Virus record (IMG/VR): IMGVR_UViG_3300005831_000023
Direction: 5' to 3' (one strand)
Source of the DNA: a virus
DNA length: 64,000 nt
Part shown: piece after piece, positions 6,515 through 51,055 of the stretch
Layout: every line of letters starts with the position of its first letter
Position numbering within the stretch: the first letter of the stretch is position 1
Notes under the pieces: model-generated
Told to the model about the DNA's origin: nothing
What the model saw: only the letters and a program-made list of their open reading frames with translations
Database searches by the model: none
Program-made: the position numbers and the translations under genes

Positions 6515-6530
6515 ATAGGATAATTATTAC

Positions 6531-6950: not shown

Positions 6951-6956
6951 TTCGCC

Positions 6957-7983: not shown

Positions 7984-8122
7984 TAGGTTAGAATCTTTAA
8001 ATTGTCCAGAGAATTTTACATTTTTGTAGTATTTTTACAGATATGTACATAAAAAAAGCAATATCAAATATATATTACTTTTTTCAACTATGTACAAACT
8101 AATATGTTTACATTAGTTATCT

Positions 8123-8380
8123 GCTTTCAATATAGCAATTATTAGCTTCAATTCTAACAAATTAGTAAAGCTTAGTATCGTTTCAATGTACAATTGTTTA
8201 ATATTTTCAACTGTTTCAATAATAGCAATTGTTGTCAACTAACCGTCAAGTAACCGTCAAGTAACCGCATGTTTTCAGCTTTCAATATACAATTGTCGTT
8301 TATGTCTGCTTGCAACATAGCAATTATTAAATCTAAATTAATATCAGTTTCAATATACAATTGTTTAAATATTTTCAACT
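8123..8380. repeat. Decayed CRISPR-repeat-like units plus an 11-nt tandem repeat flanking the array
   Basis: Six units resemble the CRISPR repeat around a CAATTG core: 8123-8152, 8180-8212, 8213-8240, 8278-8307, 8308-8335 and 8347-8380. Units 8180-8212 and 8347-8380 are nearly identical to each other, and each abuts a repeat-like unit with no spacer. AACCGTCAAGT occurs as 2 full tandem copies plus a degenerate partial third copy (AACCGCATGT) at 8241-8273. Confidence 0.55.
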
Positions 8381-8671
8381 GTTTCAACATAACAATTGTT
8401 GTTTGCAAACTAATTAAGTTGAATTCAATTTAAATTAATGGTTTGCAGTTTCAACATAACAATTGTTGTTTGCAAACCACATACTAACAAAACAAAAGTT
8501 AAAACTCGAACGTTTCAACATAACAATTGTTGTTTGCAAACGCAGAAATAGTTGGTAATGGTAGTAAAAAAACAAGGTTTCAACATAACAATTGTTGTTT
8601 GCAAACACTGCATTTTTCGATTATTAACCATCCACCATAATGTTTCAACATAACAATTGTTGTTTGCAAAC
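8381..8671 (-). CRISPR. CRISPR array: 5 identical 30-nt repeats and 4 unique spacers
   Basis: Repeat GTTTCAACATAACAATTGTTGTTTGCAAAC at 8381-8410, 8448-8477, 8512-8541, 8577-8606 and 8642-8671. Spacers at 8411-8447 (37 nt), 8478-8511 (34), 8542-8576 (35) and 8607-8641 (35). The strand call is tentative. The minus strand matches the adjacent nuclease gene, places the decayed repeats at the distal end, and gives a repeat ending in GTTGAAAC. Confidence 0.9.
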
Positions 8672-8897
8672 GCTTTTCGAAACTAGCTTTCAAAAATTAC
8701 AAAACCTCTAACTAATCATTACAACTAGCTTTTAAGATTTTGTTCCAAGTACAATTGCATTTTGCTATCCAAGTGGATAGGGTGTCTATATAGTTCTTGG
8801 AAACTCAATAGACTTAACGAGCGGAAGCCAACTACCAAGTAGAATTACGACGAATACTCGCTTTTAGCCGCCAAATCGGCTTAAGTACTATTATATA
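8672..8897 (-). ncRNA. Candidate tracrRNA / omega-RNA-like scaffold (or array leader) between the nuclease stop codon and the array
   Basis: Non-coding and visibly richer in G/C than its surroundings. Hairpins CTATCC-AAGT-GGATAG (8765-8780) and GCCG-CCAAAT-CGGC (8867-8880). ACTTAA/TTAAGT long-range pairing (8812-8817 with 8880-8885). A repeat-like segment GTTCCAAGTACAATTGCATTTTGC at 8742-8765. No T-run terminator after the nuclease gene. Confidence 0.4.
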
Positions 8898-10169
8898 TTA
8901 CTTTTTATTTTTTTTCAACTTCTTTTTTATTATTTCTTGATTATCTGGGTTGGAAATATTTTTAGCAGCATTATAATCTGCATCAAGTTTTACTCCACAA
9001 TTAACACAAACAAATTCATCTCTTTTTACTCTATTGTCTTTATCTGTATGCCCACACCCACTACACTTTTGACTAGTGTATCTTGGGTTTATAAGTTTAA
9101 CTTCAATTCCAACTTCATCAGCTTTGTATTTAATCTTTTCTTGTAAATCGAAATAGCTCCAATCTTTAAGAAATAACTTATCTTTTTTAATATTTGATAA
9201 GTCTTCCATCTGTATTATTTTACAGTTATTCTTAACTGCTAATCCTACAATATATTTAGAATATTTATGGTTAATCAAATCTTTAAAATTAGCTATTTTC
9301 TTTCTCACAACTCTTACATATTTAGACCTATGTTTATATCCTCGACCTTTTATAGCATCGCTTTTTATGCTAGATTGCAAAGACTTTAATAAAGATTCTT
9401 GTTTCTTTCTAAAGCTGTCTATTTCGCCTCCTCTTATGTGATATCTTTTTAAATTATTATTAAATGCCATATAAGCAGCATTTACTATTCCCATGTCTAT
9501 ACCCATTATATTTTTATCACTTAAAAGTAACTCTTTCTTTTCCATACAATATGTTAAATTAATGAACCATTTATTCTTACTAAAAATTATCATTGAAGCT
9601 CCGATTTTATACTCTCCAGATAGCACGCTTTCAATTATTTTCTTTTGGTAATTACCATCAACTTTAATTTCTACGCAAACATGGCAACTACCTTCGTTTC
9701 TTGCAAATAACCTTAAGTCTACATAATACTTATTTTCATTTTCAATAACTTCTATGCTCTTAGAATGTAAATCTATAATACTATTTTTATAAGATGGAAT
9801 AGACATCTCACCTTTTAAAAACTTCTTCTTACTATCATTCCATTTCTTGCAACCTCTTTGAATAGAAGTTGAAATATTAGCTTTCGATAGCATTGGGTAT
9901 TCGGTTCTGATTACTTTATCACAATACCCACTAAAAGATTTGTATCCTAATATACTTAATATATCTGGTTTACACTCATGTTTGATATAATAATCCGAAC
10001 AATAATTATTCCATTCCCAATTTAATCTAATTGTTTTGTTCAATACTTTTTGTGTTTGGTCTTGAAACTCCACAAGTTGTTTCTTAAAATCTTTGAAATC
10101 TATACCCTCAGAATCGATTATCTGAAAGCGCATCACTTTATTTATTGTATCAATTTTTATTTCGTCCAT
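8898..10169 (-). CDS. cas12f: Miniature type V effector, Cas12f/TnpB-like RuvC nuclease (423 aa)
   Basis: Split RuvC motifs appear intact: GIDMG (D225, codon 9495-9497), IQMEDL (E322, codon 9204-9206) and DADYNAAKNI (D398, codon 8976-8978). Also RYTSQ plus a CxxC..CxxC zinc ribbon (C369/C372/C388/C391). Strong SD GGAGGA lies 6 nt upstream of the ATG. The gene sits directly next to the array. Confidence 0.85.
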   Translation of the reverse strand: MDEIKIDTINKVMRFQIIDSEGIDFKDFKKQLVEFQDQTQKVLNKTIRLNWEWNNYCSDYYIKHECKPDILSILGYKSFSGYCDKVIRTEYPMLSKANISTSIQRGCKKWNDSKKKFLKGEMSIPSYKNSIIDLHSKSIEVIENENKYYVDLRLFARNEGSCHVCVEIKVDGNYQKKIIESVLSGEYKIGASMIIFSKNKWFINLTYCMEKKELLLSDKNIMGIDMGIVNAAYMAFNNNLKRYHIRGGEIDSFRKKQESLLKSLQSSIKSDAIKGRGYKHRSKYVRVVRKKIANFKDLINHKYSKYIVGLAVKNNCKIIQMEDLSNIKKDKLFLKDWSYFDLQEKIKYKADEVGIEVKLINPRYTSQKCSGCGHTDKDNRVKRDEFVCVNCGVKLDADYNAAKNISNPDNQEIIKKKLKKNKK

Positions 10170-10170: not shown

Positions 10171-10599
10171 TCATTCCTCCAGCATATTGTATATACAAAG
10201 TATGGACATATTAGCTACTTGACTTTTATTTACACCCCATTTTTTAGCAAGGTGTATTGTCAAATCATTAACGGAATTGAGCATATTGAATGATACATGT
10301 GTTGTATCTTTATTCTTCTTTATTCTATTATATGCAGTTCTAACATCATCAATATCTTTTATTTTAAATTTCAAATCTTCAAAACTTGTTTTTTTATCAA
10401 TTAATTTATTAATTTTCAATAAATCTTCTTGACTCAAGTTTTGTAAGTTTTCTATAATATTATCTATAGAAGTTTTAATTATAATCTTCTCTTTAATATT
10501 TTCTTGAGTTTTATTTTTTTTTGGATAATTAGCAGCTTGTTCTATATCTATATCTACGCCTTCATTTTTATTCTTCTTATTCATTTTCATACCTCTCAT
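10171..10599 (-). CDS. Putative centromere-binding partition protein (ParG-like, C-terminal ribbon-helix-helix)
   Basis: Follows parA with a 23-nt overlap. The C terminus THVSFNMLNSVNDLTIHLAKKWGVNKSQVANMSILCIYNML has a strand-helix-helix pattern. Alternative starts exist at M4 and M6. Confidence 0.5.
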   Translation of the reverse strand: MRGMKMNKKNKNEGVDIDIEQAANYPKKNKTQENIKEKIIIKTSIDNIIENLQNLSQEDLLKINKLIDKKTSFEDLKFKIKDIDDVRTAYNRIKKNKDTTHVSFNMLNSVNDLTIHLAKKWGVNKSQVANMSILCIYNMLEE

Positions 10600-11356
10600 T
10601 AATTTTTTTTATAACTTCATTTGTCAATTTTGCATATTGTCTGGATATTTCTAATTTATTATCAAATAATTCTATAGGAATACTTAGTTCTTGAGATCGT
10701 ATAATATTAACAGATTCAGATAATATTGTATTAAATATTTGGTTACTATCAAAATATTCGCTCATCTTTTCAAAACATTTTTTTGTTAAAGTTGTCCTTT
10801 TATTTGCTCTAGTTAATACAGTTCCCAATATTTCCAAATCGCTATTAGTATTATTTCTAATATCGTTAACTAAATTTATAATCCTGTTAATACCTTCAAA
10901 TGAAAATATTCCCACATCTATTGGTATTATTAAGTAATCGCATGCTGATAGAACATTTAAAGTTGCTATTCCCATTGTTGGTGAACAATCAAATAAAATA
11001 AATTTATAATCATCTTCTACCTCAGATATTCTTTTTTTGATTATCAATTCTCTAGCTAAATAATTTGAAAAGTCTAGATCGATGGAAGTAAGTTCCAAAT
11101 GACTTGGTATCAAATCCAGATTATCAAACTTAGTTTTTAGTATTGCATCTTTAATTCCTATTTCATTTTTAAGAACACTGTAAATATTTCTATCTTTGTG
11201 AGATTCTTTTTTAGTATAAATTCCTTGACTTAAATTTGCTTGGCTATCCATATCTACTAATAATGTTTTATACTTTTTAGATAAATTATATCCAATATTA
11301 ATAGTACTGGTAGTTTTAGCAGTGCCTCCCTTTTGGTTAAACATAGCTATTTTCAT
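10577..11356 (-). CDS. parA: ParA-family partition ATPase (deviant Walker A)
   Basis: MKIAMFNQKGGTAKTTST (KGGxxKT), DMDSQANLS and IIPIDVG. 259 aa with no N-terminal HTH, so it is type Ib-like. Confidence 0.9.
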   Translation of the reverse strand: MKIAMFNQKGGTAKTTSTINIGYNLSKKYKTLLVDMDSQANLSQGIYTKKESHKDRNIYSVLKNEIGIKDAILKTKFDNLDLIPSHLELTSIDLDFSNYLARELIIKKRISEVEDDYKFILFDCSPTMGIATLNVLSACDYLIIPIDVGIFSFEGINRIINLVNDIRNNTNSDLEILGTVLTRANKRTTLTKKCFEKMSEYFDSNQIFNTILSESVNIIRSQELSIPIELFDNKLEISRQYAKLTNEVIKKINERYENE

Positions 11357-11800: not shown

Positions 11801-11847
11801 CCCACTAAGACCCACTAAGATACCACTAAGATACCACTAAGATACCC
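11801..11847. repeat. Iteron-like tandem repeats upstream of rep
   Basis: CCCACTAAGA x2 (11801-11820), then TACCACTAAGA x2 (11821-11842), then a partial TACCC. Confidence 0.7.
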
Positions 11848-12318: not shown

Positions 12319-13491
12319 ATGATAAAAATTAAAAGATACAAAGCAGAAGATTTAATTAAAAATAAATTTTATGAAATGCCTAAATTTTTACTATATAATG
12401 AGTTTAAAGGTTTATCTTATGGTGCTAAGATATTATATGTGTTACTTAAGGATAGACATAAATTGAGTATGAAAAACAATTGGGTGGATAAATATGGATA
12501 TATATATCTAATTTATACACGAAAAGATATGGCTAAAATGTTAAATTGTTCCGAACATAGTTCTATAAAATATGCTAAAGAATTAATAAAATATAAACTT
12601 ATTGAAGAAGATAGAATTGGTTATAATCAATCAAATAGAATATATTTAACAGAAATTACCATAGATATATACTCCAAACACACTGATATCAAGGACATGA
12701 ACAAATTGCAGTATGGACATGAAGAAAGTTCATGTCCGGACATGAAGAAAGTTCAACCTAATAAGAATAACTTTAATAATAATAATTCTACTAAGAATAA
12801 ATCTGTCTGTTCTGAATCAAAAGATGAACAATCGTTCGAACAAAAAACAGAAACAGACAGACAGACAGATATTGACATAAAAAATGATTTATTGGAAAAG
12901 GTTAACATCAACCTAAAAAATGACAAAAAAAAGGATTCATCAGCAAATACTAATGAAAACCTAAAAAATGACAATAAAAATTGTTTGGGTAAAGATCTTA
13001 AAATCAACACATTAAGCTATCCAATCAATTTTATTAAACAACATTTTAAGTTTAATGAGCTGATAAGTCAACCACCAATACAAGATGAGATTTTTGCAGA
13101 GTTGCATAAAATATTAAATTATAAGTCTCAAACCATTAAGATTGGCGCCAAGATACAAGATGAAGACATTGAGATATTTAAACAAAAGCTTATGAAACTT
13201 ACACCAGAAGACATACAAAATGTGGTAAATAAGGTCTTAGAAGTTGCAAATAAAGAATATGTTCAACATCCAGACTTGCTAATAAGGACTAAGATATACT
13301 ACCAGTTTAAATCTAGCATTAAGGCACTATCTAAAAACAATGCAAAAAGGAAACCAAAAGAACCTATACCAACAGTCAATAACATACCACAAGTACCACA
13401 GGAACGTAATTATGAGCAAAGAGAATACACAAGTGAGTACCTTGAAAGCTTTTATGAAAATTATTGGGATAAACATACTAAACCAGAATAA
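12319..13491 (+). CDS. repA: Plasmid replication initiator, RepA_N family
   Basis: The N-terminus FYEMPKFLLYNEFKGLSYGAKILYVLLKDRHKLSMKNNWVDKYGYIYLIYTRKDMAKMLNCSEHSSIKYAKELIKYKLIEE..NRIYL matches the RepA_N pattern. SD AAAGGAG upstream. Low-complexity central region with DNA-level repeats. Confidence 0.85.
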   Translation: MIKIKRYKAEDLIKNKFYEMPKFLLYNEFKGLSYGAKILYVLLKDRHKLSMKNNWVDKYGYIYLIYTRKDMAKMLNCSEHSSIKYAKELIKYKLIEEDRIGYNQSNRIYLTEITIDIYSKHTDIKDMNKLQYGHEESSCPDMKKVQPNKNNFNNNNSTKNKSVCSESKDEQSFEQKTETDRQTDIDIKNDLLEKVNINLKNDKKKDSSANTNENLKNDNKNCLGKDLKINTLSYPINFIKQHFKFNELISQPPIQDEIFAELHKILNYKSQTIKIGAKIQDEDIEIFKQKLMKLTPEDIQNVVNKVLEVANKEYVQHPDLLIRTKIYYQFKSSIKALSKNNAKRKPKEPIPTVNNIPQVPQERNYEQREYTSEYLESFYENYWDKHTKPE

Positions 13492-14498: not shown

Positions 14499-14837
14499 CT
14501 ACTTAGTTTTTGGTAATTTAAATACATTACTTTCGATTAAAGTTTTAATCAACTTATCAAATCCGTTTTTCTTACTTAAACCAAGTCTACTTGTCATTTC
14601 AAGAACTATATCAAATGCATTCTTGAATCTATCAATATTTTTATCATTCTTGTATAATTGTTCTGATAGGTTTACAGCATGTCCTACGATCGATTCTAGA
14701 GCCTTAATCTTATCCAAGGTCAAATTATACCTTGATTTATATAAGTCTTTTAAATACAAGAATAACGTGTATAGAACACATACTAACAAAACAAAAGTTA
14801 AAACTCGAACGGAATTATTCATTATTAACGCATACAT
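14499..14837 (-). CDS. Membrane-anchored hypothetical protein (single N-terminal TM), last gene of the lysis cluster
   Basis: 112 aa. N-terminal hydrophobic helix VLTFVLLVCVLYTLFLYL. Lies directly downstream of the endolysin gene. Contains the spacer 2 match. Confidence 0.7.
   Translation of the reverse strand: MYALIMNNSVRVLTFVLLVCVLYTLFLYLKDLYKSRYNLTLDKIKALESIVGHAVNLSEQLYKNDKNIDRFKNAFDIVLEMTSRLGLSKKNGFDKLIKTLIESNVFKLPKTK
14777..14810. other. Protospacer: perfect 34/34 match to CRISPR spacer 2 (8478-8511)
   Basis: CACATACTAACAAAACAAAAGTTAAAACTCGAAC is identical on the plus strand at both sites. The next base (G) also matches the first base of the following repeat. The match covers codons ~10-20 of the 112-aa gene. 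Confidence 0.95.
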
Positions 14838-14855: not shown

Positions 14856-15611
14856 CTATTTGCCAAACATTTTTAATACTTTACTTAACATTACAGCAAC
14901 TTCTTCTCTTGTTGCAGTATTCTTTGGATTAAAATTACCATTCTCATCTCCAACAATAATTTTGTTTCCGCATAAATGATTTACTGAATCTCTCGCCCAT
15001 TCTGCTATCTCGTCATGGTCATTAAATATTCTAGCTTCGACTTTTTCAATAACTGGATCAGTCAATGGAACATCTAAATAATATAATATTCCAACAGCAA
15101 CATTATTTGAAATTTCATTCATTTGATTTACTATAAAATTAGCATCATCTTTATTATCATGAAATGCAATTTCTACAAGGCTTGCAGGAGCATTAGTGGA
15201 TTCTAATTCATACATGCTTTTACCATCGCCATAAAAATTCTTACCAACCTTTACTCCTCTGTCTTTAGTAGGCGTTAGAGGTTCTAGTTGACCATAAATA
15301 GCACGAGATAACTTCTCACCTTCTCCACCAAACATATGACAAAAAACTTCACAACCACGATCATCACCAGTATTAGCATTTGAATGTATTGCGATATGCA
15401 CATCTACGTTTTTCGAGTTTGAATCTTTTACTATTTTAGATAGCGTCCAAGTATTCTCACTCCTATAAACTATCACTCCTCTAGATTGAAGTATCTTTTG
15501 TATGTTATCAGTTATCAAAGCCATGCGATAAGCTTCTGTGCCATACTCGCCAACTCCAACATTATCAAACTGATTTGATCCACTTAAATAAACACTTTTC
15601 ATAAAATTCAC
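14856..15611 (-). CDS. Endolysin: N-acetylmuramoyl-L-alanine amidase (Amidase_3-type) with a C-terminal SLH-like wall-binding module
   Basis: Motifs HIAIHSNA and SLVEIAFHDN. C terminus EWARDSVNHLCGNKIIVGDENGNFNPKNTATREEVAVMLSKVL is SLH-like. Confidence 0.9.
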   Translation of the reverse strand: MNFMKSVYLSGSNQFDNVGVGEYGTEAYRMALITDNIQKILQSRGVIVYRSENTWTLSKIVKDSNSKNVDVHIAIHSNANTGDDRGCEVFCHMFGGEGEKLSRAIYGQLEPLTPTKDRGVKVGKNFYGDGKSMYELESTNAPASLVEIAFHDNKDDANFIVNQMNEISNNVAVGILYYLDVPLTDPVIEKVEARIFNDHDEIAEWARDSVNHLCGNKIIVGDENGNFNPKNTATREEVAVMLSKVLKMFGK

Positions 15612-28297: not shown

Positions 28298-30340
28298 TCA
28301 TAATCTATATGCATGATAGTCATATCTTGCATAAGTTATACCATTGACAGAAAATATTTCATATGATGGATAAGAACTCGTTAGTTTACCATAATATATA
28401 TTGTCTGCAACATAAGTATATACTTTATCAGCAGGAGTATCTTGGCAGAAATATCTTTTACCCATCATTACAGCATTATAACCCATATAATAATACCCAT
28501 TTCCATATACGTCACTAACTAAACTTTGCTCAGTACTAGCTATTTTAGTAGCATCATTTATACATCCCTTAACAACAAAAACTTCTTGACCATCGTGAAT
28601 TCTAGTAGCACTAAAATCTCTATATAGCGGATAAGCACTATTAATATCTGAAAATGGTAACATATACTGACCATTTAATCCATCGATAACTTTAAACTTT
28701 ACAGTATAGTTACTATTGTCAATATAGAAGAATAATTCACCCATGTAAAAAGCTTGGATTGATTCATTACTTGGAAGTCTAACAGATACATCTATGATCT
28801 TTTGTACAGCAATAGAACGTGCCATTCGAATACTAATACCATTCTTAGTTAGACTAGCGTAGTTAGTTGTTAAATTACTTGCAAGTGCATCATCGCAATA
28901 AAAATTAATTGTCCAACCTAGCAAGTCTTGAAACATTGTAGCACAAGTATTTACAACTCTAGAATTAATACTTTTTCCTGCTTCGGATGTAGTAATTCTA
29001 GCTGTTGTAATGCCATAAGAATCTGTTCCTGCACTAGTACTTAAAACAGTTTTAACACCATAAACATAATCATCATTTTTCATGCTAGAAACTACATTGA
29101 AATTATATCTATTTGAACCAGTGCCAGTAAATACTTTAATGCTTCTAGCACGTTTGAAAGATGAATCATAGTAATATAATTTAGATTTTTCACCAAGACT
29201 TATAACAGGAGGAGTAAAATTAGGATATCCGTCATTATAAGCGTTAAGATACCAACACGTTGTAAAATCCCATCCAACAAATGTTGATTGAGTTTTCATT
29301 TCAGAAGTTGTTTTAGGAGTTGCATAAAGTTCTGGAAATATACAAGTATCTGAGTTATAATAACAAGATGTCATAACAATTGGTGGATCGCTTATAGCAC
29401 CAAGAAAAGCTCCAGGCTCTTCTTCCGTTAATTCGGTTTGATTTGTATAATTAAGTACACAATAGCTATTAATATAAGTGTTATCATAATAGGTAAATGG
29501 TACAAATCCTGCTACAAAGCGAGGATTGATTGTAACTATTAGATTACAAATAGAAAAACAGTTTATAACATAAATAGCATCAAGTTCAGAAGCAAAACCG
29601 CCAGTATATCCATATTGACAAGTAATTGTTGAAACAGAACTACATTTTTCGATTCTTAACCATCCACCATAATTTACAAATCCACCAAAAGAATCTATAC
29701 CACCAAAAGTTGCTGTTGAATGACAATTTTCTATATAGTTATATTCTTCAAAATTAGCACTCCATCCTTCGCAACCTCCAATAAATCCTCCGACATTATA
29801 AGGTAATTTTGAACCAGTATTGTTAATTATAAGACTTGTAGTACAATCTTTTATATAACTAAATGTATTACTTGGATAAAACTCACCAGACAAACCTCCA
29901 ATTGTACTAGGGAAATAAACATTACAATTTGAGTTTATAGTTAAACTTGTAGTTATGTTTTCAATTTTACCAGAATAAATACCACCCGCTAATGCACCTA
30001 ATTTCAAAACTGAATCAGTCCAAGTTGCATCATTTAAATTTATTATAGCATTTTCTATATTAATATTCTTTATAGTATAAGCTGTTGTAATATCACTAAA
30101 TAGCCCCCAATACCAAGTATCAAATGGATTCATAACTAGATTAGTGATTTTAAATCCACCGCCATCATATCCTCCTGTAAATTCTCCACCAATTGGCGAC
30201 CAACTTGGGTAATCACTTAAGTCAATATCAGCTGTCTGTAAGAAAAATGATGATAAATAATTTCTAACATAGTTTAATTGTATTGAATTGCTTACAAGGT
30301 ATGGATCAAACTCCGTACCAGTACCGCCATCAAAAGACAT
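28298..30340 (-). CDS. Tail-associated protein with a GLUG-motif beta-helix-like N-terminal half
   Basis: The N terminus GTGTEFDPYLVSNSIQLNYVRNYL..ADIDLS..WSPIG..FTGGYDGGGFKITNL is typical of GLUG-motif proteins. Repeated GG(L/F)xG motifs. Confidence 0.75.
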   Translation of the reverse strand: MSFDGGTGTEFDPYLVSNSIQLNYVRNYLSSFFLQTADIDLSDYPSWSPIGGEFTGGYDGGGFKITNLVMNPFDTWYWGLFSDITTAYTIKNINIENAIINLNDATWTDSVLKLGALAGGIYSGKIENITTSLTINSNCNVYFPSTIGGLSGEFYPSNTFSYIKDCTTSLIINNTGSKLPYNVGGFIGGCEGWSANFEEYNYIENCHSTATFGGIDSFGGFVNYGGWLRIEKCSSVSTITCQYGYTGGFASELDAIYVINCFSICNLIVTINPRFVAGFVPFTYYDNTYINSYCVLNYTNQTELTEEEPGAFLGAISDPPIVMTSCYYNSDTCIFPELYATPKTTSEMKTQSTFVGWDFTTCWYLNAYNDGYPNFTPPVISLGEKSKLYYYDSSFKRARSIKVFTGTGSNRYNFNVVSSMKNDDYVYGVKTVLSTSAGTDSYGITTARITTSEAGKSINSRVVNTCATMFQDLLGWTINFYCDDALASNLTTNYASLTKNGISIRMARSIAVQKIIDVSVRLPSNESIQAFYMGELFFYIDNSNYTVKFKVIDGLNGQYMLPFSDINSAYPLYRDFSATRIHDGQEVFVVKGCINDATKIASTEQSLVSDVYGNGYYYMGYNAVMMGKRYFCQDTPADKVYTYVADNIYYGKLTSSYPSYEIFSVNGITYARYDYHAYRL
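29639..29673. other. Near-protospacer: 33/35 match to CRISPR spacer 4 (8607-8641)
   Basis: Genome ACTACATTTTTCGATTCTTAACCATCCACCATAAT versus spacer ACTGCATTTTTCGATTATTAACCATCCACCATAAT. Same orientation as the spacer 2 match. Confidence 0.9.
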
Positions 30341-43229: not shown

Positions 43230-43664
43230 CTAAACTGAGTCCTTCTTCGCCTCCATTCGCTTCATTTTTTCTAAAAAATCTTCATCTTTTATACCATTCA
43301 TATTATTAGCAATAGTTATAATATCTAATAAATTTTGAGTGGTTAAATTATCTATAAAATCCTGCGTTGGTTCTTTATCAAATACAGCTGTCAAGTATTT
43401 ATTTAGTATACTATCTCCATCTTCATATCTCAATATTTCAGATACACCTATTGTTTTAATTATCATAAAACTATTATAGTCACCAGACTTGAAATATTTG
43501 ATCTTAGTAGCCTTAATAGTGATTATACCTATACCATCCACTTCAATTTGATTATTCTCTAATTTAGGCTTTTTAACGTTTGTAGAGGTATCTATATCTT
43601 CTTTCATTGTGTCAAAGCTTTCTGTAGCTTTTAATAACATTTCTCTTTCAACTTTATTGCTCAT
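43230..43664 (-). CDS. Tail assembly chaperone (G-like)
   Basis: 144-aa acidic protein upstream of the tape measure gene. Confidence 0.6.
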   Translation of the reverse strand: MSNKVEREMLLKATESFDTMKEDIDTSTNVKKPKLENNQIEVDGIGIITIKATKIKYFKSGDYNSFMIIKTIGVSEILRYEDGDSILNKYLTAVFDKEPTQDFIDNLTTQNLLDIITIANNMNGIKDEDFLEKMKRMEAKKDSV

Positions 43665-44544
43665 TAAAGTATCTCCTATCGTTTGTTAGTAAAGGCTCAT
43701 CACCTTTTTTAAGTTTAGGACATAGATGTAAGTTAGGCTTAACAACGTTATCTATATATTTATACTGATAAACTAAAATATTGCCATTTCTAATACATGG
43801 ATTTTGACAGCAATTATCAATACAATATTGTTGGTATTCACACATTATATGATCCTGGAATAAAGAAGTATCAACATACAATTTAAACCCATTCTCTTTG
43901 GCGCTTAAACAAAATGGTATATCTTCGCCAAATTCATGAAAATCATATCTGCATTTTGTATATGCATTCTTACTTATTAGGTACACTGCTCCAGTGTAAT
44001 CACATTCTACAATTGAGTTAAGTGGAAATTCATAAAAATGTGATATTGAGTTATATCTATTATTTATCAATACATTAGTTCTTATATGTGGATATTCTCT
44101 ATAAGGTTGGAGTATACTATCATTATTGATTAAGCAAGCAATTATATCTTTTTTACTTTTTAACAACTTTTTAAGTGTATTAGGAACTAAAATAATATCG
44201 CTATCAACGCTTAAAAAATAATCAGTATCTAAATTTTCTAAGATATGGTTTCTAAGAAGTGTTAATCTTCTATACGTTTCATTTCTATAAGTATCTAATC
44301 GCTTGTCTTTAAAAGCTGGAAGTTTATACTTCTCAAGTTTAATTTCTAGATATTCTTTATCATGAATTGATTTAAATCTTCTTAAAGTAGAATCAGTTCC
44401 ATCTTGACAGTTATTAATTAAGAAATATAGTTTAATTTTATCCTTGGGATAATCTAGATTATAGATAGCTTCTAAATATCTATCTATTAAATATTCTCTA
44501 TTAGATATTGGACATCCAATTGTTATAGTACGCAAATCAATCAC
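43654..44544 (-). CDS. Glycosyltransferase, family 2 (GT-A fold)
   Basis: N terminus ITIGCPISNREYLIDRYLEAIYNLDYPKDKIKLYFLINNCQDGT and a DSD motif (SVDSDIILV). Overlaps the chaperone gene start by 11 nt. Confidence 0.75.
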   Translation of the reverse strand: MIDLRTITIGCPISNREYLIDRYLEAIYNLDYPKDKIKLYFLINNCQDGTDSTLRRFKSIHDKEYLEIKLEKYKLPAFKDKRLDTYRNETYRRLTLLRNHILENLDTDYFLSVDSDIILVPNTLKKLLKSKKDIIACLINNDSILQPYREYPHIRTNVLINNRYNSISHFYEFPLNSIVECDYTGAVYLISKNAYTKCRYDFHEFGEDIPFCLSAKENGFKLYVDTSLFQDHIMCEYQQYCIDNCCQNPCIRNGNILVYQYKYIDNVVKPNLHLCPKLKKGDEPLLTNDRRYFNEQ

Positions 44545-44611
44545 CTCGTATTAGTGTCTAATTTGCTTTATATGGATTTGTTTAAAAAGACATGTAATTA
44601 TAGCTTAAAAC

Positions 44612-44660
44612 TAAATAAGAGGCTTATAAGGCATCTAGACGTCAAATAAGCCTATATATA
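44612..44660 (+). repeat. Short copy of the rep-proximal repeat family
   Basis: TAAATAAGAGGCTTATAAGGCATCTAGACGTCAAATAAGCCTATATATATC shares AGAGGCT, TAAG, ATCTAGA and GACGTCAAAT(A/T)AG(C/A)C..TATAT blocks, in the same order and orientation, with unit 13495-13612. Confidence 0.55.
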
Positions 44661-45284
44661 TCATTGTATAACGAATAATGCATTTCCCATTCCAAGATAG
44701 TTATATTCATTATCATCATGAATTAATGTAAATCCATTTTTCTCTAAGAATTTAGTATAGTCTTCAAATAGACATAGACCAGTGTAGCGCTCTTTTATAG
44801 AGTACTCAGTATATATAAGCTTAATTTGTTTTATAGCTATTCTAGATGCGCTAAGGACGTTATACTCATTGCCTTCCATATCAAACCAACAAACTATATC
44901 TCCAGTTATTTTGTTATTCTTAACAAACTTGTCTAAAGTAATAGTTTCAACAGTTTGTTTAGTTTTAAAATATACATCTGGATGAATAGTCAAATGTTCC
45001 TTTGGTTCTAACAAAGTATCTGATCCAGTTGTATTTCCAGAACTTACAAACATCTCAGAAGTACCATTCTTGTTGTGCAATGCAAGATTAAACAACTTAA
45101 CATTAGCTAGGTCTTTAGTTCTATCAGTTAACTCAGCAAAATGATGAGTAATAGGTTCTATTCCATACACAATTCCATTAGAAAATACATTGCTTAATTG
45201 AACTGTATCAAAACCTTTATTAGCTCCTGCATCAATTACTGTAGCATTATTTCCAACATACTTAAGAAAATCAAGTTTGTTCAT
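44661..45284 (-). CDS. FkbM-family SAM-dependent methyltransferase
   Basis: VIDAGANKGFDT (SAM-binding Gly-rich motif). LDKFV..I..DIVCWFDMEGNEYNVL is typical of FkbM-type methyltransferases. Confidence 0.7.
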   Translation of the reverse strand: MNKLDFLKYVGNNATVIDAGANKGFDTVQLSNVFSNGIVYGIEPITHHFAELTDRTKDLANVKLFNLALHNKNGTSEMFVSSGNTTGSDTLLEPKEHLTIHPDVYFKTKQTVETITLDKFVKNNKITGDIVCWFDMEGNEYNVLSASRIAIKQIKLIYTEYSIKERYTGLCLFEDYTKFLEKNGFTLIHDDNEYNYLGMGNALFVIQ

Positions 45285-45285
45285 A

Positions 45286-45984
45286 TCACAACTCCTTTAT
45301 TTTTATTCTTTCTAATACATTCAAGCTAAGTCTTTTAACAAAATTATCATGGTCATTTTCCCAGTTTATATGATAAGCTTCATCATTTGAATCTTTACTT
45401 CTTTTGCCAAGCACAAAATGTCTATGCTCAAATAATGTATTATCATTAATTCTATTATCTTTTAAGACACCTAAATCTCTAACATTAAAGTAAAGCTCGG
45501 TATCACTAAACATATGAGTATATGAAGGATGATAGATGGCTTTGTTTAATAACTTAAGACACTTAAAAGTCATTATTGGAATTGTAATAGATGGTCTATA
45601 TCCAAGATTATATGGATCTTGATACCCATCATTAACAAATAAACATCCAGCAAAGTCATTAAATTGGTCAAATAAATATAAATCCCAGTCAATTGGTGCG
45701 AAAAAATCGTCGGAACTCAATATTATAATATCATTATCATTAGCATCTAAATTAGAAGTTAAGTAATAAGTTGGATATACAACACCTCTAGTTCCATTGT
45801 CTGCAACGAATACTTCACAGTTAGATATATTATAACTATCTATTATTGATTTTTGAGAATCATTCGATACAGCTACTTTTAATATAATATTATCAATATT
45901 ACTACATTTAGATTTCCAGTCATTATATGTATCATAAAACATTTGTGGTCTTACAGTTGACCAAAGTAAATATATATTCATCAC
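45286..45984 (-). CDS. Hypothetical protein in the glycosylation cluster (possible glycosyltransferase)
   Basis: Operon context. IIILSSDDFFAP could be a DxD-like motif. No secure family assignment. Confidence 0.6.
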   Translation of the reverse strand: MMNIYLLWSTVRPQMFYDTYNDWKSKCSNIDNIILKVAVSNDSQKSIIDSYNISNCEVFVADNGTRGVVYPTYYLTSNLDANDNDIIILSSDDFFAPIDWDLYLFDQFNDFAGCLFVNDGYQDPYNLGYRPSITIPIMTFKCLKLLNKAIYHPSYTHMFSDTELYFNVRDLGVLKDNRINDNTLFEHRHFVLGKRSKDSNDEAYHINWENDHDNFVKRLSLNVLERIKIKEL

Positions 45985-46685
45985 TTACCCCAATTCCACT
46001 TTTCTCTAAAGTAACTTGCTCTATCATAGTAGTTTGTTTCAGATAATACATGAGTCTTATTCCATTTACTAGTTTGTTTAGCATGGTAGTAAGAACAGTC
46101 TAATTGGTACACATCCCATTTTAAAGCTTGCATTTGGAAAAACAAATCATCATCCTCAAACCCCCATCCTACTTTATAATTTTCATCAAACATGCATTTA
46201 TCAAATACTTCACTTTTAAACAATCCATATTGAGTTAATGCATATGAAGCAAATGAAACTTCATGTTTTAAAAGTTCATGTTCAATCGAAGGGAGTTGAG
46301 GAGTATAAGTTTTCAAGTCGTTTGTAAAATACTTAGGATTGAATCCAATGCATTTAGCATTAAAATTTAAATCATCAAATCTGTTTTTAAAGTAATTTAA
46401 ACTTCCGTTAATATATAATATATCAGAATCCATCATTAGTATAAAATCACCTTTAGCAACTCTAATCATTTGATTCCTACCAATTGCAGAGCCAACATTT
46501 TCACTATTCAAGATACTTATAAGGTCATTTTGATCTTTCAACCATTCTTGTGATCCATCTACTGAACCATTATCCAATATAATAATTTCTAAGTCTACAG
46601 TTTTACGCTCTTCACGTAAATTATCTATTGTAGGTTTTAATATTTCTAACCAATTCCAATTAATAATGCAAACACTAAATGTCAT
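45981..46685 (-). CDS. Glycosyltransferase, family 2
   Basis: FSVCIINWNWLEILKPTIDNL..IIILDNGSVDGSQEWL and MDSDILY (DxD). Confidence 0.8.
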   Translation of the reverse strand: MTFSVCIINWNWLEILKPTIDNLREERKTVDLEIIILDNGSVDGSQEWLKDQNDLISILNSENVGSAIGRNQMIRVAKGDFILMMDSDILYINGSLNYFKNRFDDLNFNAKCIGFNPKYFTNDLKTYTPQLPSIEHELLKHEVSFASYALTQYGLFKSEVFDKCMFDENYKVGWGFEDDDLFFQMQALKWDVYQLDCSYYHAKQTSKWNKTHVLSETNYYDRASYFREKWNWGK

Positions 46686-46690
46686 GGTGA

Positions 46691-47422
46691 TTACTCCTTA
46701 TTTAAATAATATCTACCATTATATTTTTGATAAATATCTAGTAAAGTATCCATTCCTTGACCATAATCAATACATACTTTACCACATTGTTTAGCCATTA
46801 TATTTGATATAATCTTTGCATTTACACCAGCCGAAACTAGACTCCAATCATGATCTACACTATTCATATACTCAATAGTCTTATCAATATCATTTGGATT
46901 AGTAATATCTGTGTAATATCCTTTAGCGACAACTCCTAATTCTTCTAATAAAAAATCAGCAAATAGTTTAGACAGTGAACCAATCAATAATGGAGGATTG
47001 AGTCTAATCAAGTTAACAAAATCTTTACTATAACATAATCCTACATTTACAAATGCATAACATAAATTTTTTGGTTTATAATCTAAAGCCGAAAACATTC
47101 TACTTGTAAAATCATCATCTGGAAATACACCAACAAAATCAGCTTCTTTAATTGCATTAATAAGCCTATCTCTTGTTTTGATATCTGGTGTTGATACTCC
47201 ACAATAAGCAGTTCCAGTTGACCATGCTACATCTTTGCGTATATAATCTTGGCTAAGCAATATTTCTTGAGACATAATTATTAATTCGCCATCACCAATT
47301 CTAGTTATATAAAATGGTTCTTTATTTTGTATTTTAGTATATATAATATTAATTAAATCTTCTTGAGATATTAAATCAGAGTGATTAAATTTAATATGAT
47401 TAGCATTTGTTAAATAACTCAT
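46691..47422 (-). CDS. Putative GT-D-type glycosyltransferase (DUF1792-like)
   Basis: The RIGDGE motif (ITRIGDGELIIM) recalls the GT-D/DUF1792 family. The assignment is tentative. Confidence 0.55.
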   Translation of the reverse strand: MSYLTNANHIKFNHSDLISQEDLINIIYTKIQNKEPFYITRIGDGELIIMSQEILLSQDYIRKDVAWSTGTAYCGVSTPDIKTRDRLINAIKEADFVGVFPDDDFTSRMFSALDYKPKNLCYAFVNVGLCYSKDFVNLIRLNPPLLIGSLSKLFADFLLEELGVVAKGYYTDITNPNDIDKTIEYMNSVDHDWSLVSAGVNAKIISNIMAKQCGKVCIDYGQGMDTLLDIYQKYNGRYYLNKE

Positions 47423-47910
47423 ATGCTATCCCTTTCGATATCATCTACATAACCAATAATTCTAGCAGGATTTCCAACAACTATAGCATAGTCTGGGACA
47501 TCCTTGGTAACTACTGATCCAGCTCCAACCATAGCGTATTTGCCAATTATTAAATCTGGTAATATAGTGCAATTAGCACCTATAGAAGCTCCTTTTTTAA
47601 CTAAAGTTTTCTCGATACTCCAATTATCTTTAAATGCTCTTGGAAACTTATCATTAGTAAATTGAGTGCCTTGACCAATATAAACTTGATTTCTTATGGT
47701 TACACCATTGTATATATTTACCGAGTTTTGTATCTTGCAATGATTGCCAATACTTACACTCTTATCTATATATGAATTAGCTCCAATACTAGTTCCAAAG
47801 CCTATTATTGCATGATCTCTAACTTGAACATTGTTCCAGATTTTAGCACCATTTTTTATAGTAGATTTATCACTTATTTCTGATATTTTGTGAATAAATG
47901 CTTCTGCCAT
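47419..47910 (-). CDS. Sugar N-/O-acetyltransferase with left-handed beta-helix hexapeptide repeats
   Basis: Repeated [LIV]-G-x-x-x-x hexapeptide pattern (IGFGTSIGANSYI, IGNHCKIQNSVNI, IGANCTI, VGAGSVV, VGNPARI). Confidence 0.8.
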   Translation of the reverse strand: MAEAFIHKISEISDKSTIKNGAKIWNNVQVRDHAIIGFGTSIGANSYIDKSVSIGNHCKIQNSVNIYNGVTIRNQVYIGQGTQFTNDKFPRAFKDNWSIEKTLVKKGASIGANCTILPDLIIGKYAMVGAGSVVTKDVPDYAIVVGNPARIIGYVDDIERDSI

Positions 47911-47912
47911 AA

Positions 47913-49034
47913 TTACACCTCGTTTAATATTTGTTTAATAGTATTACCAATATAATCTATTTCATTCTTTGTTAAACTAAAATGAACAGGAATAGATAAT
48001 ATTTCATCCTTTACTTTATCAGCGATTTCAAATACCTCTCTAGAAGCTATATGAGCTTGATGAGGCATTAAAATAGGATAGCATATATCAGAACCAATAT
48101 TATGTTTAAATAACTCATCCTTAAGCCTATTTCGACTTATAGAGCATATATCTTTAATACGTATAGAATATTGATTATAAACAGTAATTCCTTGAGAATA
48201 CTCTTCTTGGAACTTGATATATTTACAGTCTTTTAATAATATATAATAGTTTCTAGCATTCTCATGTCTAAACATATTCCGTTTAGTTATATGTTTAAGT
48301 TGGCATAAACCAATAGAAGCTGATATATTTGTCATCATATAATTATATCCAAGCATAGTAGAAACATATTTTTCAGCTTGACCATGATTCCTAATCATTT
48401 TGAGTTTCTTATATATATTAAAGTCGTTAGTGGTTACCATTCCACCTTCTCCAAGATACATATTATTAGTTGGGTAGAAACTAAAACAACCACAATCTCC
48501 AAAAGTACCTACATATTGAATGTCTTTATCATTTAATAATATCTCAGCAAAATGAGCTTGACAACAGTCTTCTATAACTCTTAAATTATACTTGTATGCA
48601 ATTTTATTAATAGTAATCATATCACATGGATTACCAAATAAATGAACTACTAATATTGCTTTAGTTTTATTAGTTATCTTATCTTCAATCTGATCAATGT
48701 TCATGTTTAAAGTCTTATCATCAATATCAACAAAAACTGGTTTAGCTCCACACATTAGAATACTATTAGCAGTAGATATAAATGAAAAACAAGTAGTAAT
48801 TACTTCATCGCCTTGACCAATACTATTGGATATTAAAGCCATATGCAAAGCGCTAGTGCCACTATTACAAGCTACTGCATAATCACAATTCATTTTTGTA
48901 GCAAACTCATATTCAAATTTTTCAACTACTTTTCCATATCCAAGTTGTTTGGAGTGCAATACTTCATTTACAGCATTTATTTCTTCGCCAGTTATTATAT
49001 TGTTTGTCATACTAATAAAATCCATTTTAATCAT
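47913..49034 (-). CDS. DegT/DnrJ/EryC1/StrS-family (PLP-fold) sugar aminotransferase-like protein; the Schiff-base lysine appears replaced by Asn
   Basis: Motifs NSGTSALHMAL, VIEDCCQAH and CFSFYPTNNMYLGEGGMV (the family consensus has K at the first N of NN; N190 is codon 48465-48467). Confidence 0.8.
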   Translation of the reverse strand: MIKMDFISMTNNIITGEEINAVNEVLHSKQLGYGKVVEKFEYEFATKMNCDYAVACNSGTSALHMALISNSIGQGDEVITTCFSFISTANSILMCGAKPVFVDIDDKTLNMNIDQIEDKITNKTKAILVVHLFGNPCDMITINKIAYKYNLRVIEDCCQAHFAEILLNDKDIQYVGTFGDCGCFSFYPTNNMYLGEGGMVTTNDFNIYKKLKMIRNHGQAEKYVSTMLGYNYMMTNISASIGLCQLKHITKRNMFRHENARNYYILLKDCKYIKFQEEYSQGITVYNQYSIRIKDICSISRNRLKDELFKHNIGSDICYPILMPHQAHIASREVFEIADKVKDEILSIPVHFSLTKNEIDYIGNTIKQILNEV

Positions 49035-49037
49035 CTC

Positions 49038-50018
49038 CTAACTATGAAGACCATTGTAGACATCTAATATTTGATAAGCTTTAAGTCTGTAATTATGATT
49101 TCTATAGACAAATTCTTGAGCATTGGTTGCAAATTCTTTTCTCATAGCATCAGTCATACCCAATATCTCTTTAGCCATATCTCTCATTTCTGGATAGTCT
49201 TTAGCGAGGTATACATGCTTATAAAAGCATATTTCTTGAGCTTTAGTATAATAACTAAGTAAGATACTGTGACCACATCCAAGTACCTCAAAATCCCTCA
49301 TGCTTTGTTGCGTAAAACTTCTATCACTACACTGAGAACCTAAAGCAATTGTAGCACTAGAATACATTGATGGTAATTCTTCATATGGTAATACGCCATG
49401 ATAACAATTCATATGATTAGCTAAGTTAACTGGTCTAGTAAAATCATCCCAACAAAGACCATATACATCAACTTTAAAATCATCTAACAATGGCATTATA
49501 AATTGTTTAGACTTATCAAATCTATTACTATAGTTACTAGCACATAATGCAATATCATGAGCATATTTTGGGTTAAAACCAACATTTTTATGATATTCTG
49601 GATTAACACCAAACATTAACAATGAAGCGCTTTTTCCATTCTTTCTATATCTAGGTAAGCATTCTAATGTAGTTGTAAATATATGATCTGAATGCTCTGA
49701 AAAATAATCTCCGATTTGAGTTGTAACAGGGTCTTCTATTGCCCATGCAAATATTGGTATACCTAATACATTAGTACATTTTCTTAATTGTATTAAAGGC
49801 AATCCGCCATAACCCTCTGTAAATATTAAATCTGGCTTGAAATTATGTATTTTAGTAAGTAATAATTTTAAATGTTCTTCAAATGGTTGCTCCCAAATCT
49901 TGTGATGTTCCGGATCGCTTAAATAATCAACTTCCATACCAATCTGTTGAAACCCACTCATTAATCCAAATTTAATTAATGGGACTTGTGATAAGAATAA
50001 TACTCTTATTTTTTTCAT
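49038..50018 (-). CDS. Glycosyltransferase-like protein (CgeB / GT1-related C-terminal domain)
   Basis: C-terminal RDFEVLGCGHSILLSY..AKEILGMTDAMRKEFATNAQEFV resembles the CgeB-type Glyco_trans_1 segment. Confidence 0.55.
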   Translation of the reverse strand: MKKIRVLFLSQVPLIKFGLMSGFQQIGMEVDYLSDPEHHKIWEQPFEEHLKLLLTKIHNFKPDLIFTEGYGGLPLIQLRKCTNVLGIPIFAWAIEDPVTTQIGDYFSEHSDHIFTTTLECLPRYRKNGKSASLLMFGVNPEYHKNVGFNPKYAHDIALCASNYSNRFDKSKQFIMPLLDDFKVDVYGLCWDDFTRPVNLANHMNCYHGVLPYEELPSMYSSATIALGSQCSDRSFTQQSMRDFEVLGCGHSILLSYYTKAQEICFYKHVYLAKDYPEMRDMAKEILGMTDAMRKEFATNAQEFVYRNHNYRLKAYQILDVYNGLHS

Positions 50019-51013
50019 ATGTTAATCACCTTTTCATAGTATTTTTCTATAGATTCTGAAATTAAATCAGCTCTTATTTTCCAAGAATTATTATTAGCAA
50101 CTTCTAAACATTTTGATTTTATAATCTCATCATTTTTAAGTCTTAATGCTTTTTCGATATTCATAATATAACCTTCTCTTGTAGAACTTGTTAAAACAAT
50201 ATCTTTATATTCTGGATCACATGCTTCTGGGATATCTGTAGATACTGTTATTTTTCCATGAGACATGCCTTCGTACATCTTGATTGGGTTACTATAGTCT
50301 GATATTTGACAGCGCTTAAATGGTAATAAATTGACGTCACAATGATGATAATAAGCTTGAAGTTCCTCATAACTTTTGTTACCAATGAATATACAGTTAC
50401 TTGGAATATCTTTTATCCCCCAAGTCAAACCAACTACAACAACATTATATCTGACTGACAAAGCTCCGATTAATTCTAAATCACACCAGAATGCTAATGC
50501 TCCACTAAATAATAATATAGGTCTACCATTCATTCGAATATTTTGATATTCAATTGGTATAGGATAATCTATTAATCCAAGCTCTGGAAAACATCCATTT
50601 CTACAAAGATGAATATTATTATGTTCAGATTCTCTAAGGTTATATAAAGTTTTAGATGTGGTAAATAAAATGTTAGATTTAGAAATCATACTGGTTTCAT
50701 GCATAGAATTAGCTTCGAAATTATCTAAGCTATCATATATTACTAAGTCGCTCCTTATGCTATCTAAGTCAATAAATCTGCTAGACCAGCTAGAAAAGTA
50801 GATATCCACTTTTGGAACTCTTTTTACAAATACATCCCAATTATAATGAATTTCTAAATTATTATTAATAATATCTTTAGCCTTATCTTTAACTTGAGTT
50901 TGATTAACCCAGTATACTTTATAGTTGTTAGAAAGTAACTTCATAAGATGATGAGGTCTTTGTTGCAATGCAAAATCAAAATCTATAGTATTGGCATATA
51001 ATAAAGTTTTCAT
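50015..51013 (-). CDS. Glycosyltransferase (GT-B-like)
   Basis: C-terminal NPIKMYEGMSHGKITVSTDIPE is a GT4-like motif. The start is probably M15 of the ORF-track protein (ATG at 51013, preceded by AAAGGAA). The track start at 51055 abuts a terminator T-run and has no SD. Confidence 0.6.
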   Translation of the reverse strand: MKTLLYANTIDFDFALQQRPHHLMKLLSNNYKVYWVNQTQVKDKAKDIINNNLEIHYNWDVFVKRVPKVDIYFSSWSSRFIDLDSIRSDLVIYDSLDNFEANSMHETSMISKSNILFTTSKTLYNLRESEHNNIHLCRNGCFPELGLIDYPIPIEYQNIRMNGRPILLFSGALAFWCDLELIGALSVRYNVVVVGLTWGIKDIPSNCIFIGNKSYEELQAYYHHCDVNLLPFKRCQISDYSNPIKMYEGMSHGKITVSTDIPEACDPEYKDIVLTSSTREGYIMNIEKALRLKNDEIIKSKCLEVANNNSWKIRADLISESIEKYYEKVINI

Positions 51014-51055
51014 TTTTTTTAATTCCTTTTGTTTATTTTTTCTAAAAATGGACAT

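Follow-up and report, generated by a model that had tools for sequence, protein, structure and literature searches.

A miniature Cas12f CRISPR locus on a predicted phage-plasmid, with spacers that match late genes of its carrier

CRISPR systems of subtype V-U3, now V-F1, are found mainly in Clostridia and Bacilli, and the minimal loci of this type known as As and Sp, each consisting of cas12f, a trans-activating CRISPR RNA (tracrRNA) and an array, interfere with plasmids in E. coli (PMC7229846). A locus of the same type is present in the virus record IMGVR_UViG_3300005831_000023. The stretch analysed (the window) is 64 kb of a 118-kb metagenome contig, and its gene content suggests that the element is a large siphovirus-type phage-plasmid of a low-GC Firmicute. 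One of the four spacers in the array matches a tail gene of the same window at 33 of 35 positions, and another matches the holin gene at all 34. A preliminary description of the sequence had taken the first match for a fragment of a relative's tail gene. The explanation preferred here, tentatively and at somewhat less than an even chance, is that a working V-F1 system on a phage-plasmid is used against very close relatives, the spacer at 8607–8641 representing a sister allele of the tail gene.

The locus is like those of AsCas12f1 (Sulfoacidibacillus thermotolerans, also 'Acidibacillus sulfuroxidans') and SpCas12f1 in the size and fold of the effector, in gene order, in the lack of cas1, cas2 and cas4, and in having spacers of 34–37 nucleotides (nt). 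Unlike these, it is located beside parA on a predicted phage-plasmid and, in two of its four spacers, has matches to the element that carries it.

In the portogloboviruses SPV1 and SPV2, virus-borne mini-arrays target close relatives, and the virus's own copy of the targeted locus is mutated (Medvedeva et al. 2019, PMC6858448). The similarity to the present case is that a short array on a virus holds spacers matching genes of its own lineage, and that the carrier's own tail site has point mutations. The differences are that the SPV1 and SPV2 arrays have no cas genes and use the host system, and that each exactly targets a sequenced, co-occurring relative, in both directions, whereas the element described here brings its own effector and tracrRNA, its best relative matches the tail spacer at only 30/35 positions, and one spacer matches the carrier perfectly.

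Other mobile elements carry CRISPR systems as well. Subtype V-F is enriched on plasmids (PMC11656645), and type IV, V-M and V-F systems on plasmids, Cas12r in phage Lalka and the type I-F system of ICP1 are all comparable to the present locus in this respect. Those systems target different elements (plasmids, integrative elements, PLE), while the spacers in the window match the carrier's own late genes. The mobilome of Clostridium novyi sensu lato includes V-U 'Cas14a-like' loci and presents a self-target paradox, the coexistence of spacers and their targets, which has been read as a block to superinfection (PMC8473940). The low-GC Clostridia setting, the large phage-plasmids (c-st/p1) and the coexistence of spacer and target are shared with the present case. 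In C. novyi sensu lato, however, the spacers are chromosomal, of type I-B, and directed against a resident botulinum neurotoxin phage, while here the spacer and target are on one replicon and the effector is V-F1. The V-F1 type, element-borne CRISPR directed against kin, and mutated self-sites are therefore all already known; what is unusual is a full effector and tracrRNA on a predicted phage-plasmid, and self-matches that include a perfect one.

Spacer matches in the tail and holin genes

The array, the two targets and the genes around them are listed below, with window coordinates.

8381–8671, minus strand: CRISPR array of five identical 30-nt repeats (GTTTGCAAACAACAATTGTTATGTTGAAAC on the minus strand) and four spacers, probably read in the direction of cas12f, like the validated As and Sp arrays
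8607–8641, minus strand: spacer with the tail-gene match ('spacer 4' of the preliminary description), probably leader-proximal and first in the transcript; guide, if read on the minus strand, ATTATGGTGGATGGTTAATAATCGAAAAATGCAGT
28298–30340, minus strand: target gene for a 680-amino-acid tail-tip protein with GLUG-like repeats, downstream of the genes for Dit and a minor tail protein
29639–29673, minus strand: resident protospacer-like site in the tail gene, identical to the spacer at 33/35 positions; on a minus-strand guide the two mismatches are at positions 19 and 32
29674–29677, minus strand: flank of the tail site, GTAA, on the side of the protospacer adjacent motif (PAM); position −2 corresponds to the wobble base in the Val222 codon, GTA
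14499–14837, minus strand: holin gene, 112 amino acids, Phage_holin_6_1 (PF09682 at 31 bits, above the curated cutoff; phrog_608, holin)
14777–14810, minus strand: resident protospacer of spacer 8478–8511, at about codons 10–21 of the holin gene; minus-strand 5' flank AATTCC
14856–15611, minus strand: amidase endolysin gene (phrog_435), with the holin gene directly downstream

The five repeats start at 8381, 8448, 8512, 8577 and 8642. The spacers between them, at 8411–8447, 8478–8511, 8542–8576 and 8607–8641, are 37, 34, 35 and 35 nt long.

Spacer 8607–8641 (ACTGCATTTTTCGATTATTAACCATCCACCATAAT) was realigned with the tail gene at 29639–29673 (ACTACATTTTTCGATTCTTAACCATCCACCATAAT). The alignment is ungapped and has 33/35 identities, with the same two mismatches that had been reported before, at plus-strand spacer positions 4 (G in the spacer, A in the resident gene) and 17 (A and C). 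With four spacers, both strands and a window of 29.6% GC, the chance expectation for matches of at least 33/35 is about 4e-10, and a chance origin was ruled out. In the frame of the open reading frame (ORF) 28298–30340, the spacer encodes (N)YGGWLIIEKCS and the resident gene (N)YGGWLRIEKCS. Translation thus bears out the earlier statement that one change is synonymous (TGC in the spacer, TGT in the resident gene, both Cys) and one missense (ATA, Ile, in the spacer; AGA, Arg, in the resident gene).

The same spacer contributes to a minus-strand promoter-like site at 8620–8648, which consists of TTGAAA from the end of the first repeat and AATAAT inside the spacer. The T that differs from the resident gene falls in this −10-like hexamer, probably by coincidence.

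The target had been called a 'GLUG-type' tail protein. The resident protein itself has no match in Pfam, PF07581 included, even at E<=10. The label holds by way of its homologues, many of which, down to E 3e-49, carry PF07581 (GLUG motif), and by alignment, in which a GG[LF][VI]G...C repeat is present and the protospacer lies within one repeat unit.

Only one close relative of the tail protein was found in a search of 5.8 billion protein clusters: P0002, 81% identical in amino acid sequence, encoded on a 2.7-kb contig (locus L001) from run SRR21620677. The L001 site (GATATGGTGGATGGTTAATATTTGAAAAATGTAGT) is 30/35 to the spacer; it has the ATA (Ile) codon of the spacer and the TGT codon of the resident gene. 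Among 12 homologues, only the resident protein has Arg at the missense column, where most of the others have a hydrophobic or small residue. With L001 as the outgroup, the only one available and a fairly distant one, Ile looks ancestral, Arg is probably derived in the resident gene, and TGC looks derived on the spacer lineage.

The spacer's Ile state is, on the evidence of the L001 codon, a natural allele. To this extent the earlier view of the spacer as a relative's allele stands, though the exact protospacer was found in no collection searched, and the two differences also fit divergence after acquisition. The allele pattern fits equally well a source in a sister allele and a source in an ancestral resident gene, with one change on each side. 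That the spacer-lineage change is synonymous favours a coding source, by a rough likelihood ratio of about three.

The match of spacer 8478–8511 to the holin gene is exact, 34/34, or 35/35 if the last repeat base is counted. The protospacer begins 27 nt past the start codon. Both self-matching spacers, 8607–8641 and 8478–8511, have the same orientation relative to the array, and the genes they match encode a tail-tip protein and a holin – late structural and lysis genes, as the preliminary description had it on both counts. Given the intact Cas12f, this is possibly a true self-target. Relatives of the holin gene, five in all and with 70–83% amino acid identity, were recovered from five different runs.

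The other two spacers gave no such leads. Spacer 8411–8447 had no match in the window, with up to nine mismatches allowed, or in the fetched loci or the phage or plasmid collections; spacer 8542–8576 likewise had none in the window, the fetched loci, or the phage or plasmid collections.

The cas12f locus and the strand of the guide

As far as can be judged from sequence, the locus is a complete minimal type V-F1 (V-U3) system: cas12f, tracrRNA and array, without adaptation genes. Scans with Pfam and PHROG, which covered nearly all ORFs of at least 80 amino acids in the window, detected no cas1, cas2 or cas4. The parts of the locus beyond the array are listed below; L002 is the closest relative of the locus, from the Logan assembly of run SRR21620677, the same run as the tail-gene relative.

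8898–10169, minus strand: cas12f, 423 amino acids, type V-F1 (V-U3) effector (Pfam PF07282, Cas12f1-like_TNB, E 3.9e-23)
8890–8918, minus strand: promoter-like site TTGAAA-17-TATAAT (11/12), a pattern match only, from a consensus scan; at the cas12f end, reading into the tracrRNA region
8735–8882, minus strand: putative tracrRNA with approximate ends, from alignment with the published AsCas12f1 single guide RNA scaffold and with L002
8672–8734, minus strand: leader-like region between the tracrRNA and the first repeat, in the same position in the natural AsCas12f locus and 41 homologous loci
8120–8380, minus strand: decayed repeat-like units (20/30 identity) at the end of the array distal to cas12f

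The effector matches the AsCas12f1 structures 8J1J, 8J12, 7WJU and 8DZJ with E 1e-95 over residues 10–419 (identity ca. 42%), while TnpB structures match the 423-residue protein at only E about 1e-6 to 1e-7. Cleavage by AsCas12f1 requires D225, E324, R383 and D401. The aligned counterparts here are D225, E322, R380 and D398, so that all four residues are kept, and the zinc-finger cysteines C369, C372, C388 and C391 are kept as well.

Two other identities were considered for the protein. A TnpB or insertion sequence element was rejected because the protein is far closer to AsCas12f1, a tracrRNA and an array are present, and there is no tnpA. A dead nuclease was rejected on the predicted integrity of the RuvC residues.

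The array begins 227 nt after the cas12f stop codon; in 41 of 84 homologous loci, including that of SpCas12f1, it is found 200–350 nt downstream. Within the putative tracrRNA, homology to the AsCas12f1 scaffold starts at ATTCGTCG (8855–8848). It is followed by GCTCGTTAAG at 8822–8813 and by the hairpin CTATCCA-CT-TGGATAG (8780–8765), which is retained with differing sequence in the window, L002 and As. Among the blocks shared by the window, the AsCas12f1 scaffold and L002 are ATTCGTCG and GCTCG-TAAG. The anti-repeat, predicted from repeat pairing, is 8765–8738. The repeat comes close to being a palindrome, and both AACAATTGTT and GTTTGCAAAC are palindromic in themselves. No Rfam family matched in the window, and no terminator-like site was found between 7900 and 9000.

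That the decayed units are at the cas12f-distal end agrees with a leader located towards the tracrRNA. The 'spacers' of the decayed region have no significant match elsewhere in the window. This region also includes an 11-nt tandem repeat, GTCAAGTAACC, in three copies at 8234–8267.

The guide is probably read from the minus strand. In the natural AsCas12f locus (L013), the scaffold and repeat that have been used experimentally lie downstream of cas12f on the same strand. The minus-strand repeat of the window shares its start, GTTTGC, with the As repeat and its end, TTGAAAC, with the Sp repeat, and the anti-repeat of L002 pairs better co-directionally.

The strand determines where the two tail-site mismatches fall. 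The preliminary description had placed them at guide positions 4 and 17 in either orientation. This holds for a plus-strand guide, in which case the mismatch at the PAM-proximal position 4 could protect the resident copy, but with a minus-strand guide the positions are 19 and 32.

The strand also determines the PAM side. In AsCas12f1 the PAM is NTTR, and its bases are read by H72, Y76, S92 and K96. L001 has GTT at the Val222 codon, which makes its flank GTTG, a fit to NTTR; in the resident gene Val222 is GTA and the flank GTAA, so that the resident site would lack a PAM if that of this ortholog is T-rich like NTTR. This synonymous difference at position −2 is suggestive of a PAM difference between the two alleles. 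Related arrays did not provide a PAM: for the 305 spacers of 42 loci, the fetched loci held no protospacer that could be used, and 33 spacers in the arrays of a Clostridium subgroup gave one protospacer only. At the four PAM-reader positions, the proteins of this subgroup have G/A/S, E, A and Q.

Source and use of the spacers

Under the preferred explanation, spacer 8607–8641 would come from the tail-tip gene of the element's own lineage, the likeliest donor being a very close relative with the Ile codon and the TGC codon for Cys. If the locus is expressed, Cas12f with its tracrRNA and CRISPR RNA (crRNA) would recognise incoming kin DNA that bears this allele beside a 5' PAM. The incoming DNA would be cut, and related phage-plasmids would be excluded or out-competed in the same host. 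The resident copy would be set apart by its differences at guide positions 19 and 32 and, with an NTTR-like PAM, by the lack of a PAM. A perfect match to the resident holin gene together with mismatched relatives implies that the array is directed, at the level of strains, against the lineage of the element itself. The leader-proximal spacer has two differences from its target, the older one has none, and the five repeats are identical, which argues against simple drift of the array.

Several findings weigh against this explanation. The preliminary description held that the array is aimed at relatives and not at the element's own copy, a view contradicted by the holin spacer. Among the resident gene and its five relatives, the resident holin gene is the sole perfect match to spacer 8478–8511; the relatives have 6–15 mismatches in 34 positions, and the four closest are mismatched at guide positions 4–7. 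The flank of the holin site (ATTCC/TTCC) contains TTC and so resembles TTC-type PAMs, TTC being the PAM of SpCas12f1. TTC also occurs in TTTTCA, the flank of the single protospacer found for a Clostridium V-U3 array. Kin targeting would need an extra factor for this self-match to be tolerated, such as the absence of a PAM at the site, an anti-CRISPR, or controlled expression. No single reading accounts for the tolerance of a perfect holin self-match alongside an intact nuclease.

At the tail site, the two mismatches are probably no protection for the resident copy. AsCas12f1 uses a 20-nt heteroduplex, with its nick in the non-target strand at +16 and its cut in the target strand at +23; position 32 is outside such a heteroduplex and position 19 at its far end. 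Protection by the PAM depends on the NTTR motif, and the residues that read it have changed. Their counterparts, in both the window and L002, are S80, D84, S100 and Q104, of which only S100 (S92 in AsCas12f1) is unchanged, and the Tyr that confers T-rich specificity in AsCas12f1 is replaced by Asp in the window protein. With three of the four PAM-reading residues replaced, the PAM of this ortholog may not be NTTR. The one known relative is not an obvious target: L001 is mismatched to the spacer at guide positions 1, 2, 21, 23 and 32, its mismatches at the PAM-adjacent positions 1 and 2 would make it a poorer target than the resident copy, and it would probably escape the guide.

The exact protospacer was also sought in relatives, since the preliminary description had proposed a search for a 35/35 match, and none was present in any collection searched. 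Neither phages nor plasmids yielded one when compared with the tail gene by megablast; pattern searches of IMG/VR with the spacers and repeats found neither an exact protospacer nor a related array; a codon-degenerate pattern for YGGWLxxEKC found nothing in metagenome contigs from the JGI or in IMG/VR; and a protein-guided scan of IMG/VR found no exact protospacer. All four spacers were without a match in the phage and plasmid collections, and a degenerate repeat pattern detected no related array in metagenome contigs. Among ca. 15 billion proteins, the tail protein forms a singleton at the level of 90% identity. Sampling of the lineage is very thin, so the lack of an exact protospacer is weak evidence.

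The pairing of repeat and anti-repeat counts against the assumed guide strand as well. In the window, the anti-repeat favours the antisense repeat, with a duplex energy of −20.3 kcal/mol against −12.5 kcal/mol for the co-directional one, and co-folding gives −43.3 against −37.4. Since antisense pairing is the stronger, the minus-strand orientation is likely rather than certain. Co-directional pairing is better in only 28 of 42 loci of the family, which makes this a noisy measure. The preference found in the window is the reverse of that in the validated As locus and L002.

The alternative that survives best, which is possible but doubtful, is that the spacers are self-derived passengers. They would have been taken from the element's own DNA, which is more abundant than any other replicating DNA in the cell, with adaptation possibly provided in trans, and only spacers that do not cut, for example for lack of a resident PAM, would have survived. 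Of the two differences of spacer 8607–8641, the target would have gained one and the spacer the other once the spacer had been acquired, and the spacers would have no present function. A resident source is what the holin data point to, with 34/34 in the resident gene and 6–15 mismatches in every known relative, and it agrees with the absence of the exact tail protospacer from all relatives, the lack of detected adaptation genes in the window and the decay of the cas12f-distal end of the array. One change per lineage relative to the outgroup is expected under passenger spacers just as it is under kin targeting. Five identical repeats and an intact Cas12f suggest instead that the system is maintained, and the more diverged spacer is the leader-proximal one. 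The chance that the spacer-lineage change would be synonymous is estimated at about 1 in 4 for an unconstrained spacer, and no self-matches are seen in two sequenced phages that carry Cas12f-like mini-arrays.

It is unlikely that the contig mixes co-occurring strains, the array coming from one and the late genes from another, a situation in which the self-matches would in fact link two strains and which is biologically the same as kin targeting. The source is a metagenome contig of 118 kb, and a perfect holin match implies targeting at the strain level, both of which would suit a mixture. However, the tail protein, the holin and Cas12f are each identical on the same two contigs, the array is only 6 kb from the holin gene, and the synteny of parA and cas12f is seen independently in L002.

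Similarly unlikely is that a nuclease-competent Cas12f is deliberately guided at its own holin and tail operon, either as a brake or kill-switch on the lytic programme or under the restraint of a hidden anti-Cas12f factor that would allow kin exclusion.

Regulation by binding seems rather improbable. Here binding of the Cas12f–crRNA complex to the late operon of its own element, at two places (the 5' end of the holin gene and midway along the tail gene), would act as a brake on tail and lysis expression while the element is carried as a plasmid, the guides pairing with the template strand. The two self-matches do agree in orientation, the guide having the sense-strand sequence in each, although with only two sites a shared orientation has a chance of 1 in 2. 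The holin site is close to the start codon (27 nt past it), but the tail-gene site is not near a promoter. In another V-U3 locus, L021, a small gene lies just upstream of cas12f, and a spacer of the same locus matches its ribosome-binding site and start codon at 39/40, with a TTTG flank. Within the family, RNA-guided repression has precedents in Cas12m and TldR, small TnpB-like proteins that are guided to genes on or near their own element, a likeness relevant to this alternative only. Cas12m and TldR have an inactivated RuvC, whereas the Cas12f of the window keeps D225, E322 and D398, and with its nuclease residues intact a full-length match bearing a PAM should be cut and not merely bound.

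Very improbable, finally, is a Cas12f-independent antisense RNA, made by plus-strand read-through from the early genes (63–7983) across the array, that would pair with the holin and tail mRNAs: in both spacers the plus strand has the antisense sequence of the target mRNA and the 7900–9000 interval lacks a terminator-like site, but such a transcript has no evidence behind it and would leave the conserved Cas12f, the tracrRNA and the identical repeats unexplained.

If kin targeting is true, this would be a clear case of a phage-plasmid turning its own miniature Cas12f on close relatives. Self and non-self would then be separated by a few substitutions, perhaps by one synonymous PAM change in a receptor-binding-type tail gene, and CRISPR conflict between elements would be tied directly to the diversification of tail genes.

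In practice the perfect holin self-match matters more, as a lead for an anti-Cas12f factor. Self-targeting spacers in the presence of an intact nuclease are a classic signpost for anti-CRISPR proteins, and we know of no described inhibitor of Cas12f. The gene beside cas12f in L002 that encodes an AcrVA2-like domain is relevant to this question. The 423-residue ortholog is also a possible compact editor, whose PAM may be new, since Asp replaces the Tyr of T-rich PAM reading in AsCas12f1.

The carrier element and related loci

The plus strand of the window has genes for nucleotide metabolism and the alpha subunit of DNA polymerase III, with the early genes at 63–7983. The late genes form a minus-strand block: terminase, portal, capsid-like protein, a tape measure of 2441 amino acids, Dit, minor tail protein, large tail-tip proteins, endolysin and holin. 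The nearest terminase (TerL) among GenBank phages, 34% identical, is that of Clostridium phage c-st, a phage-plasmid of C. botulinum. Plasmid-type functions are found near cas12f, where a DnaD-like rep gene with iteron-like repeats is present in addition to the following pair.

10171–11356, minus strand: parA (10577–11356) and a partner gene of 142 amino acids (10171–10599), directly upstream of cas12f and in the same order in L002

L002 has parA, the partner gene, an AcrVA2-like gene, cas12f, a homologous tracrRNA and a related but different repeat; its contig ends at the first repeat and holds no spacers. Its ParA is 71% identical to that of the window in amino acid sequence and its Cas12f 53%, compared to 81% for the tail protein of L001. 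The AcrVA2-like domain (PF26125) is encoded by a gene of 296 amino acids at 1774–2664 in L002, between the parA partner gene and cas12f. No AcrVA2-like gene was found in the 64-kb window. A CRISPR module that diverges faster than its neighbours and adjoins an Acr-like gene would be the pattern expected of an arms race between kin.

Several other loci have features that bear on this subtype. In Clostridium brassicae, spacer 3 of a chromosomal V-U3 array (L060) matches the p1 phage-plasmid of C. botulinum BKT2873 (NZ_CP063966.1, 59615–59649; L093 3001–3035) at 33/35, with the 5' flank TTTTCA. At the level of sequence, this match is direct evidence that the V-U3 subtype targets large clostridial phage-plasmids.

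The self-match of L021, a locus from a metagenome-assembled genome of Candidatus Fermentithermobacillaceae, is between 4488–4527 and 2307–2345. The sole mismatch is at guide position 1. This self-match may be autoregulatory, and would make self-directed guides recurrent in the V-U3 subtype.

Genes annotated as 'transposase' in Alicyclobacillus phage MMB025 (L086 2440–2935) and Bacillus phage Mgbh1 (L085 2800–2905) are Cas12f-like genes. Upstream of each is a tracrRNA-like region with a mini-array of one or two spacers. None of these spacers had a match in its own genome or in other GenBank phages, so self-matching is not general among phage-borne Cas12f mini-arrays.

Two sets of tandem repeats are found near the partition genes of the window: four copies of CCACTAAGATA at 11802–11846, between parA and the DnaD-like rep gene, and 2.8 copies of a 23-nt unit at 12693–12755, inside the rep gene. 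They look like the iterons or parS of a plasmid-type replication and partition module.

Inside the structural block, a sugar-modification cluster (43654–51055) separates the tape-measure region from the head genes. Glycosyltransferase-type genes (GT2, GT-D-like, GT1-like) number about six there; the cluster also encodes a DegT/DnrJ aminotransferase, an acyltransferase of the hexapeptide type and an FkbM methyltransferase, and a role in virion glycosylation or in modification of the host surface is possible.

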